The position numbers were made by a program, and so were the translations under genes. This document shows positions 50,824-53,001 of a stretch of 64,000 bases of DNA, piece after piece. The notes under the pieces are model-generated. The model did no database searches, was not told the origin of the DNA, and saw only the letters and a list, made by a program, of their open reading frames with translations. Position 1 is the first letter of the stretch; every line of letters starts with the position of its first letter. This DNA is from Flaccisagitta enflata (lineage: Eukaryota), in contig OZ231126.1 in assembly GCA_965153355.1 (NCBI GenBank), positions 14,942,001 through 15,006,000 on the forward strand, given 5' to 3'.

Positions 50824-50896
50824 ATGTCTTACAAAACCCTGCTGTTCCTTGTGGCGTTGTTCGGAATGGAAGCCATGGCCCAAAATTACGGTGAGA

Positions 50897-50984
<88 letters not shown>

Positions 50985-51348
50985 ACAAGTACCAACAGAT
51001 GCGGACAGAAACATATGACGGGGCAGATTGTGGGTATGGTGTTGTATTCCTGTTGTATCCCTTTCAATTCAGAGGACGTTGATTTGATTCAACAAAACGA
51101 TGAAACCAAATCAGTTGCCGATCAAGAAAACGCAAGTCAGAACGACATTACAGGTGTGAGAATCAATGGCTGACTCGGCGTGTCAGTCTGTCTGTGTCTG
51201 TAAGCGTGTTAGTGGTAATGACAGACGAACACGTAGGTAAGTTGTTTGATAGGATGTATATTTTTTCTTGCAGTCTCCCAACAACCCGAAGAAGCAGCTG
51301 AAGGAAGTATCGAAGTACCTCACGAAAAAGAAGTCGCAGGTGACGTGC

Positions 51349-51419
<71 letters not shown>

Positions 51420-53001
51420 TTAGTACGTGTACTTGTGCAATATTTAAGATATATCAGCGACCTACCAAAAAGATGATACAGGGTGATTTTTTTCAAGTGG
51501 GGGAAAGTATTAAGACATCAAATTTTTATTTTTCAATTTGAAGATAAACCAAAGTTAGTTTATACTTGCAAACTATTTGACATTTGATATTCAAGAAAGA
51601 AAAAATATTTTTGACCAGTTTTGAATTCAATTTAGCATAGTTGACCATTTTCAATCCATTAAGTTCATATCATTTTTTTTACAATATTGAATTTTTGAAT
51701 TATGCACAAAAAAAACTTATTTTGGTCAAAAAGTTGAATGTCAGTTTACTTTTATCACTAATTTGGATATTTTAACTCTGGTTTTTATTCAAAACAGTTT
51801 TTTACTAAAATTTTGTAATTTCAGCTTCATCCATATAAGTCATGGTGTACAGGAACAGGAAATTTTGGTTACATTTTACTTTTTGCTTATGGTATAGATT
51901 TATAATAAAAAGATATCATTGGCATATCAGATAAGTATTTTTGATATAAGGTATAAGATGTTTTAACAATATTCTTAAACCCAGAATATTAACTGTGGTT
52001 TCATAATGATCAGAAAAAAAAGTTGAATGTTTGAATTCCTTAGAAAAATAGTAAATAAAATTTCAAAACATTGTTAGGTGAAATTACATCACAGCCTCAG
52101 TAGAGAAAATTTTGCATTTCTAAGAACATGGCCCTTTTCTTAAATGCTTTTAAAAAGAGGCTATGTTTTTGAAAATGCAAATTTCTTTATTTTTATGCAA
52201 TAATATAATTTCACCTAACAGGAGTGAGATGACAAAGAATAATTTTCTTTAAAAAATCTTCTTTTTTCTACCCTTTTTCAATACATCATGTGCATCAAAT
52301 CTGTATTTCAGAGATCATCTATGCAAAAATTTATTGTTCAACACTTAAAAAATATTTTTTTCTAAAAAAAAATTATAAAAAGATAATATTAAAAAATATC
52401 TAAAAAATTGTAATGACGCATGAAATTTCTTCTTCCCGTACACTGCGTCATAAGCAATTTCATAAAAAAAACATTGATTTTCCTGAAATTTTGGGTTTGA
52501 TAAAAATATAAACAAAATTTGCCAAAAATATTTTTTCTTTCTTGAAAAGTAAATGTCAAGTAGTTTGCAACTATAAACTAATTTTGGTTCATCCTGAAAT
52601 GTCATAACTAGAATTTGATGCCTTAATACTTTCCCCCACTTGAGAAAAATCACCCTGTATTTGAGAATCTATCAGATAACTTCTTTCTCAATTTTTTAGA
52701 GAGAGCGGCGGCGTTTTTCGGACGGAGGAAAGTCGGTAATCGTAGAAGATTCAAGAAACGCTGCAGAGGCCGCCGCTGTAGACGTCCAAACAAACGCTGC
52801 AGAGGCATCCGCTGTAGACGTCCCAACAGTGGTAGCAACGGCGGTTTAAATGGCGTATTGGGAAACGCCCTGGGAGTTCTCGATACCGGCGCTCAACTCG
52901 TCAATACGGGCCTCGCTATCCATGATATGGTCAATGGCGCAAACGGAGGTGAAAACGCAGGCCAAGACTACAATCAGCAATACGCCTATTACGGAGAATA
53001 A
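50824..53001 (+). CDS. 171-aa secreted prepropeptide, antimicrobial-peptide/toxin-like; exons 50824-50890, 51073-51153, 51274-51339, 52700-53001
   Basis: Three phase-1 GT-AG introns, 516 nt. MSYKTLLFLVALFGMEAMA-QNYEDVDLIQQNDETKSVADQENASQNDITVSQQPEEAAEGSIEVPHEKEVAER-AAAFFGRRKVGNRRRFKKRCRGRRCRRPNKRCRGIRCRRPN-SGSNGGLNGVLGNALGVLDTGAQLVNTGLAIHDMVNGANGGENAGQDYNQQYAYYGE*; AATAAA near 53077. Confidence 0.85.
51479..52657. mobile_element. Tc1/mariner-type MITE in intron 3 of the peptide gene
   Basis: ta|cagggtgatttttttcaagtgggggaaagtattaag ... cttaatactttcccccacttgagaaaaatcaccctg|ta; TIR extends >100 bp; AT-rich and non-coding. Confidence 0.92.

Follow-up and report, generated by a model that had tools for sequence, protein, structure and literature searches.

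Whether positions 50,824 to 53,001 of a 64,000-nucleotide (nt) stretch of Flaccisagitta enflata DNA (GenBank assembly GCA_965153355.1, contig OZ231126.1, positions 14,942,001 to 15,006,000 of the forward strand; the whole stretch is called the window below) encode a secreted effector peptide, and what such a product might do, are the questions raised by this locus. Effector peptides of planktonic animals are barely known; their genes are short, spliced and lineage-restricted, and are therefore missed by scans for open reading frames (ORFs) and by homology-based annotation. A preliminary description, made from the letters of the DNA, had proposed here a hidden four-exon gene for a modular cationic peptide precursor. 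The analysis reported below indicates, with near certainty, that a real gene lies here: it is expressed, restricted to its lineage, and codes for a small secreted protein with segregated charges. A role as a host-defence propeptide is a more tentative reading, which is weighed against five alternatives.

Gene structure, transcripts and natural variation

Joining four coding exons of 67, 81, 66 and 302 nt yields 516 nt, that is, 171 codons followed by TAA. The three introns between them all run from GT to AG and carry pyrimidine tracts, every coding junction lies in phase 1, and the frame proposed for exon 4 is the only open one. The same product was present in a protein database as P0002, a 171-amino-acid (aa) entry predicted independently from an intron-less 713-nt ENA contig. 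When the exon-4 translation (P0001) was used as the query, P0002 was the sole protein returned from 10 candidates scored, with 96% identity over 100% of the query (all 99 residues). It agrees with the spliced model at 166 of 171 positions, the differences being K35N, R96L, N140D, T141A and E156Q.

A sequence index was queried with exon 4 and the 3' untranslated region (UTR). Sixteen public runs were listed and 10 of them contain the stretch or part of it; seven of these carry at least half of its words, nine are recorded as RNA, and six studies are represented. The source labels are marine or marine-plankton metatranscriptomes. Four of the 16 runs listed were aligned to positions 50600-53200, and contigs of three of them (X1, X3 and X6, from three studies) matched there. 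The fourth, the raw-read poly(A) run X11, of which about 6 in 100 was covered, placed nothing on the stretch, a result that counts neither way. Record 5 of X3 passes without a break through exons 1, 2 and 3 (50813-50889, 51072-51150 and 51271-51315); it is the one record that bridges the exon 1-2 junction, its exon-1 part continuing straight into exon 2, and P0002 has the same N-terminus. The exon 2-3 junction is bridged by three records in the three runs (1 of X1, 5 of X3 and 9 of X6) with at least 31 letters on each side, and the joint 51150>51271 seen in X3 becomes GT..AG with the cut at +3, namely 51153|51274. Six records in the three runs bridge the exon 3-4 junction, in two forms. The predicted form appears in records 2 (X1), 7 (X3) and 11 (X6) as 51337 -> 52698; since both sides carry AG, this is the same joint as 51339|52700. 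The second form, found in all three runs as well (records 1, 6 and 10: 51339, four unaligned letters, 52707), is shorter by 3 nt where exon 4 begins; it could represent an allele or paralogue missing 3 nt of the AG/GCG repeats at that point, or the use of an alternative acceptor. Exon 4 is covered by RNA contigs of X1, X3 and X6, and record 4 of X1 ends at 53186 with 16 A that are absent from the window, a non-templated poly(A) tail. Among the contig pieces listed, none crosses from an exon into an intron, the intronic pieces being short transposon-like fragments in intron 3. The hidden phase-1 gene missed by the ORF track, its three junctions and its exon-4 frame, as first proposed, are thereby borne out by GT-AG splicing into a 171-aa ORF, by metatranscriptome contigs and by P0002. 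The features are collected in Table 1.

Table 1. Positions, in the window, of the parts of the gene and of the segments of its predicted product.
Feature	Position	Strand	Remarks
5' UTR exon, 3' end	50587..50616	+	Non-coding; true start further upstream; donor context ctttttg|gtaagt
5' UTR intron	50617..50812	+	Ends about 11 nt ahead of the ATG; cut ambiguous by 1-2 nt; from X3 record 5 against the window
Exon 1	50813..50890	+	11 nt of 5' UTR, ATG at 50824, predicted signal peptide (residues 1-19), start of propiece; ends in phase 1
Intron 1	50891..51072	+	GT..AG; skipped in X3 record 5
Exon 2	51073..51153	+	81 nt, phase 1-1; acidic propiece module
Intron 2	51154..51273	+	120 nt, GT..AG; junction bridged by RNA contigs
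Exon 3	51274..51339	+	66 nt, phase 1-1; second acidic propiece segment
Intron 3	51340..52699	+	1360 nt, GT..AG; junction bridged by RNA contigs
Exon 4, coding part	52700..53001	+	End of propiece (..ER), cationic Arg/Cys module, Gly-rich stretch, Tyr-rich acidic tail; stop at 52999-53001
Cationic module	52720..52830	+	Residues 79-115, 37 aa, 20 K/R, 0 D/E, net +20
Tandem duplication	52756..52828	+	36 bp x 2.0, 91% matches; encodes KRCRG(R/I)RCRRPN twice
Gly-rich stretch	52831..52941	+	Residues 116-152, 9 Gly, uncharged except two Asp, net -2
Acidic tail	52942..52998	+	Residues 153-171, 4 Tyr, 3 D/E, net -3
3' UTR	53002..53186	+	One poly(A) site after 53186; X1 record 4

Both ends of the transcript show further structure. 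The 31-letter loose end of X3 record 5, lying before 50813, has a unique match in the window at 50594-50616 with one mismatch; there is therefore at least one extra non-coding 5' exon, and the gene has at least five exons. In the window allele the 5' UTR intron offers no GT..AG cut, the candidates being GT..AA, TA..AG and AA..GT, and the contig comes from a different allele. This result may be attributed to an allelic difference at the acceptor or to a truly non-canonical intron. The 3' UTR contains a 12-bp tandem repeat (53117-53178, 5.4 copies), around which the RNA contigs end at different points (53099, 53125 and 53186), suggesting alternative poly(A) sites.

The aligned contigs were 95-99% identical to the window in 13 of 14 cases and at least 99% identical in one. 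Eighteen single-letter differences were listed. Thirteen of these fall within the coding part of exon 4, where seven are non-synonymous and six synonymous, a ratio that suggests moderate rather than strong constraint. All four cysteines are retained among the RNA variants, one Cys codon showing a synonymous change only. Besides the 3-nt difference at the start of exon 4, coding length differences of 18 nt (X1 record 2, where exons 2 and 3 meet) and 3 nt (X6, near 52830) were seen, and the sole indel in the 3' UTR between RNA contigs and window measures 4 nt. Coding indels of 18, 3 and 3 nt against one of 4 nt in the 3' UTR indicate that the reading frame is under selection.

The introns carry repeats of their own, (GA)40 at 50902-50982 in intron 1 and (GT)37 at 51345-51418 in intron 3. 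Intron 3 also holds a 1179-bp non-autonomous transposon-like element (51479-52657) with TA at both ends and terminal inverted repeats of about 145-148 nt that are 86% complementary and start with CAGGGTG; inside it lies a palindrome of 73 nt (52072-52220). The window contains no second full copy of the element, only one weak 67-nt match at 63891-63957. Short RNA contig fragments of X1 and X3 match this element and presumably derive from copies elsewhere.

The predicted product and its relatives

The product is arranged in blocks of opposite charge. Residues 1-19 form a predicted signal peptide with a hydrophobic core at 5-14 and a 19-residue Kyte-Doolittle maximum of 1.34 at residue 1; the predicted cleavage lies ahead of Gln20, with Ala at -3 and -1. 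Residues 20-73 make up a 54-aa propiece with 15 D/E and 3 K/R (net -12) and EVAER at its C-terminus. In composition, the signal peptide and acidic propiece are as the preliminary description gave them, and so are the Tyr-rich acidic tail and the cationic segment with its 20 K/R, four Cys and no acidic residue, except that the latter spans 37 aa and not 38. Its cysteines (93, 98, 105 and 110) are arranged as C-x4-C-x6-C-x4-C, and the core from 93 to 110 is an 18-residue segment in symmetric Cys register (93+110 = 98+105) around a turn-prone RPNK. The repeated motif had been traced to a duplication of 33 bp; the motif is indeed encoded twice, by a unit of 36 bp.

The Gly-rich stretch had been described as Gly-spaced and hydrophobic, with GxxxG-spaced helices as the comparison, and proposed as a membrane-inserting helix. 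Its glycines are spaced by 3, 3, 4, 5 and 7, which gives one strict GxxxG only. The hydrophobic periodicity is real: over residues 120-151 it peaks at 105 degrees (about 3.4 residues, near a heptad), a peak reached by 52 of 5000 shuffles. For a single-pass membrane segment of about 19-21 residues, the Kyte-Doolittle threshold is about 1.6. The 19-residue maximum in the stretch is 0.99 (at residue 121), with a hydrophobic moment (muH) of about 0.32; since this is the highest value outside the signal peptide, the stretch is too polar to be a transmembrane segment. AlphaFold2, run on the single sequence, placed a helix at residues 120-165 with low confidence (predicted local distance difference test, pLDDT, 52-62) and gave the cationic part no structure (pLDDT below 50 over 93-110). 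A complex prediction with four copies of P0002 residues 116-171 scored 0.02 against a mark of 0.32, with no controls folded, and the score tells neither way on self-association.

Database searches placed the protein in no named family, as had been stated at the outset. Pfam-A returned no family at E<=10 for P0002 or for the exon-4 product, and hence neither a structural nor a neuropeptide family. The only PDB sequence matches, to the Cys-rich chains AMS3 and AMS9.3.1 (40-42 residues, matched by residues 97-121), had E-values of 1.3 and 7.8; these are not significant and provide no evidence of kinship. An exhaustive phmmer search of 1.84 billion representatives at E<=0.001 returned two proteins, P0002 itself and one partial relative. 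The latter, P0003, is a 226-aa entry without a name that comes from a JGI contig, and its E-value for the library as a whole is 4.3e-4. The one JGI metagenome locus found, L001 (60% over residues 107-141), was discarded as spurious: it lies out of frame in a bacterial cytochrome bd oxidase subunit I gene on a GC-rich contig, the other frame giving a Pfam E-value of 2.2e-156 for that subunit. Five peptide motifs taken from this protein and P0003 were absent from 8.09 million PubMed Central (PMC) papers and 0.36 million bioRxiv preprints. Its sequence defines a new family; its architecture is of a known kind.

The similarity to P0003 is confined to residues 19-51 and occurs twice (BLASTP, 20/31 identities, E 2e-07). 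Projected onto the window it covers 51072-51155, which is exon 2, with 72-74% identity over 27-29 residues. Because the match coincides with this phase-1/phase-1 exon, exon 2 is a module common to two otherwise unrelated proteins with cationic segments. In both proteins the acidic module adjoins the cationic segment, but P0003 is without Cys, the Arg/Cys module and the Gly-rich helix, and consists of a tandem array of 119-aa units that are identical at 106 of 107 compared positions. Within each unit, whose net charge is -3, the acidic module is accompanied by a GKR site and by an amphipathic, Lys-rich helix with a muH of 0.67. The P0003 ORF is probably a fragment, hence the lack of a visible signal peptide. 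No further relatives of P0003 were found at the sensitivity of the search used, and a family could not be assigned: 34 weak, unrelated Pfam matches typical of a K/E-rich helix were obtained, and only RuvA_C (25.3 bits) lay just over its cut-off of 24. These K/E-rich helices may also resemble segments of stress proteins of the LEA/dehydrin-like type.

Elsewhere, the window has about 36-50% G+C and includes microsatellites of the (GA)n, (GT)n and (GAA)n types, while neither an Rfam family nor a transfer RNA was found in it. The only recognisable neighbour is a set of SLC13-type (Na+/sulphate or dicarboxylate) transporter exons on the reverse strand at 20933-24481 (Pfam Na_sulph_symp and CitMHS), whose best named matches are fish SLC13A2 proteins with 39-40% identity. 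Taken with the intron signals and the marine-plankton origin of the RNA, this neighbour points to a planktonic animal as the probable source. A 478-aa stop-free frame at 40875-42311 on the forward strand, with no Pfam or PDB sequence match, could be either a relic of a transposon or a large orphan exon. Positions 1-640 are occupied by an extended, imperfect (GAA)n/(TTC)n microsatellite, which keeps several frames open and attracts spurious protein matches. Matches of the spliced protein at 246-623 by tblastn (E 0.001-0.05) lie inside this (GAA)n tract and were set aside as compositional, and a match of P0003 at 16452-16568 (36% of 39 residues, E 0.015) is probably due to chance.

Possible functions of the secreted protein

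By analogy with precursors that join an anionic propiece to a cationic peptide, we tentatively regard the protein as a lineage-restricted host-defence propeptide, a two-module effector; this is the reading we place first, while holding it somewhat short of probable. The signal peptide would be removed after residue 19. The acidic propiece (net -12), aided by the acidic tail (net -3), would mask the +20 Arg/Cys module during synthesis and storage, until the module is released by proteolytic cleavage, either behind the ..ER that closes the propiece or at a multibasic site just upstream of Cys93. The candidate release sites are ..ER|A and, upstream of Cys93, RRK, RRR and KKR. The freed Arg-rich module, possibly stapled by two disulphides (93-110 and 98-105), would bind polyanionic microbial surfaces such as lipopolysaccharide, teichoic acids or nucleic acids, and the uncharged amphipathic helix with its Gly/Asn face (about 120-151) may partition into membranes.

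The architecture agrees with this class in its predicted signal peptide and in an acidic (-12) region followed by a cationic (+20) one, and to that extent the layout put forward in the preliminary description stands. The defensin likeness drawn from it does not. Defensins, whether alpha/beta, CS-alpha-beta or big defensin, are recognised by six to eight cysteines, paired in three or four disulphides with a spacing particular to each family, and by family profiles, whereas this protein has four and matches no such profile. The occurrence of the exon-2 acidic module beside Lys-rich helices in P0003 resembles the situation in families with a conserved pro-module and varied cationic cargo, which would be an indirect hint in the same direction. 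A bolder version, which we consider rather unlikely, makes the protein the founder of an undescribed host-defence family, a self-masked effector of three blocks in which an acidic pro-module neutralises a near-pure-arginine, disulphide-stapled, polyanion-binding hairpin, itself covalently joined to an uncharged amphipathic helix with a Gly/Asn face; the gene would have been assembled recently from an acidic exon shared with the Lys-rich helical polyprotein P0003, a 36-bp duplication and orphan sequence. In that founder version, and with the same doubt, the helix would supply the membrane activity that the hairpin is without, and the acidic exon would serve as a shared pro-cassette for unrelated cationic cargoes in the lineage.

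Several observations weigh against a host-defence role. The functional reading draws on composition and layout, and the function is one that we infer. The cationic module is not amphipathic (mean Eisenberg hydrophobicity -1.0 to -1.4, beta hydrophobic moment at most 0.5), and a single Ile is the only hydrophobic residue between its cysteines. The i,i+5 Cys spacing suggests that the two putative disulphides lie on opposite strand faces, which suits a hairpin ladder less. A cut after ..ER is not at a classical convertase site, the many multibasic sites could lead to shredding of the cationic module, and a propiece of -12 does not offset +20. AlphaFold2 confidence was low throughout (mean pLDDT 52.8; predicted template modelling score, pTM, 0.24). 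No second copy of any exon or flank was found within the 64-kb window. The P0003 unit, with its net charge of -3, may belong to a non-defence K/E-rich helical protein, so that the link to antimicrobial peptides (AMPs) through P0003 is weak. Finally, tails rich in Tyr, Gly, Asn and Gln are commoner in structural or adhesive proteins, and the charge blocks combined with such a tail fit a structural or coacervating protein equally well.

This last possibility is the alternative that survives best, although we consider it unlikely: a secreted structural, adhesive or coacervating matrix protein whose charge blocks and Gly/Asn/Gln/Tyr-rich C-terminus self-assemble or cross-link via Cys/Tyr. Mucus, a feeding structure, an egg coat, cuticle or cement would be possible settings, each falling under the same reservation. 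Strong charge blocks with a Tyr-rich low-complexity tail, a heptad-like periodicity suited to helix-helix association, disorder over most of the AlphaFold2 model and an internal duplication like those of repetitive matrix proteins are all in line with it. Even a run of 21 million letters yielded the assembled transcript, with k-mer depths of 5-20, which is compatible with abundance, depth being a poor measure of it. In contrast, the protein is very short for such a role (152 aa after the signal peptide), has two repeat units only and matches no structural family in Pfam; moderately relaxed constraint and charge-changing variants (7/13 non-synonymous) are also commoner in effectors, without being exclusive to them.

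Two further alternatives are improbable. The first is a non-defence polyanion binder of secretory granules or the extracellular space, which would, like a protamine, condense or carry nucleic acids, sulphated glycans or polyphosphate, with the propiece acting as an intramolecular inhibitor. A segment of 37 residues in which 20 are K/R and hydrophobic side chains are nearly absent suits electrostatic binding rather than membrane insertion, and a signal peptide is predicted, but the conserved amphipathic helix and the tail would be left unexplained and neither Pfam nor phmmer revealed homology to any such protein. The second, to which we give no greater chance, is a toxin or deterrent against prey or predators, released from a venom-like precursor as a Cys-containing cationic peptide with a membrane-active helix. 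The layout argues for a toxin in the same way as for AMPs, and residues 97-121 show the weak, non-significant likeness to AMS3 and AMS9.3.1 mentioned above; however, PDB E-values above 1 are no evidence, the four cysteines form no knot-type pattern, and Pfam contains no venom family that matches.

A neuropeptide or hormone precursor is more improbable still. Multibasic cleavage would free small peptides from it, for example one C-terminally amidated from ..FFG-RR, with the remainder acting as spacer. Gly followed by a dibasic pair stands directly after the propiece, several further multibasic sites follow, the acidic region has the architecture of a spacer, and P0003 carries GKR sites between its units. 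There is, however, one candidate amidation site and there are no repeated bioactive copies, since what is duplicated is the Arg/Cys motif; a conserved C-terminal helix of such length would be left without a role, and no neuropeptide family was matched in Pfam. Hardly credible is a transcribed but functionless young ORF, arising as transcriptional noise or as a de novo gene without a role: the orphan status, the low-complexity composition and the microsatellites and transposon in the introns would suit it, but the frame is open in all variants seen (coding indels measure 18, 3 and 3 nt, the UTR indel 4 nt), none of the four Cys is lost, the predicted signal peptide is a proper one, the transcript was recovered in runs of six studies, and one exon is common to another expressed protein, P0003.

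The module combination, an arginine/cysteine repeat fused to an uncharged amphipathic helix, is unusual, and so is the shared pro-exon. Candidate cationic peptides from transcriptomes are, however, common and mostly await proof, and on either reading the practical gain is modest for now. Should the host-defence reading hold, the protein would give peptide-antibiotic research a new scaffold and zooplankton studies a marker of how host and microbes interact, and its gene would be a worked case of gene birth through exon sharing and micro-duplication. As a matrix or adhesive protein, it would illustrate in compact form how a secreted protein built of charge blocks can neutralise itself.

Comparison with known systems

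The known systems are compared here as they are described in excerpts of three sources (PMC2866484, PMC10945409 and PMC5577615). According to the first, AMPs are generally made as precursors that shed an anionic propiece, and chimeric AMPs of several domains are known, hyastatin and the penaeidins among them (PMC2866484). The tachyplesin and polyphemusin hairpins (17-18 residues, two disulphides) are the nearest counterparts drawn on for the core 93-110, which likewise has 18 residues and four Cys and is Arg-rich (PMC2866484). Tachyplesin-type hairpins are strongly amphipathic, whereas this core has a single hydrophobic residue; Cys spacing and precursor layout differ too, the present protein having its acidic propiece at the N-terminus and an extended domain at the C-terminus, and there is no sequence match (PMC2866484). 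Of these differences, amphipathicity and Cys spacing count against a defence role. Aurelin of the jellyfish Aurelia aurita, also a planktonic marine animal, shares the signal peptide, the anionic propiece and the cationic Cys-containing part, but has six Cys in three disulphides, in contrast to four Cys in a duplicated CxxxxC unit here, and the two do not match (PMC2866484). In hyastatin and the penaeidins, as in this protein, one secreted chain joins Gly-rich, Arg-rich and Cys-containing modules; domain order and content differ, and the present protein is without a Pro/Arg tract, a six-Cys domain or a Pfam match (PMC2866484). Its Gly-rich part is a predicted amphipathic helix and not a series of (L/I)GGG repeats as in the chimeric crustacean AMPs (PMC2866484).

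Hydra AMPs are described as secreted, taxonomically restricted, highly transcribed proteins of bipartite charge and patterned Cys, encoded by clustered paralogues (PMC10945409). Precursors of the arminin and periculin type resemble the present one in their signal peptide, bipartite charge, Cys in the cationic part, narrow lineage and apparently abundant transcripts (PMC10945409). The present protein has no sequence similarity to them, and its uncharged amphipathic helix and Tyr-rich tail are additional to their layout. Tandem clusters of paralogues are the rule in the Hydra families (PMC10945409), whereas this gene has no paralogue in the 64-kb window, which again counts against the defence reading.

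The myticalins of mussels differ in being linear and Cys-free, with the anionic part placed C-terminally after Lys-Arg, in forming a multigene family and in having tested activity, and they show no sequence similarity to the present protein (PMC5577615). Their genes are alike in a first exon of 5' UTR only, an intron just before the ATG and phase-1 introns, and their precursors in combining a signal peptide, a cationic Arg-rich region and an anionic extension (PMC5577615). Within the myticalins, the signal and anionic parts are conserved around a variable cationic part (PMC5577615).

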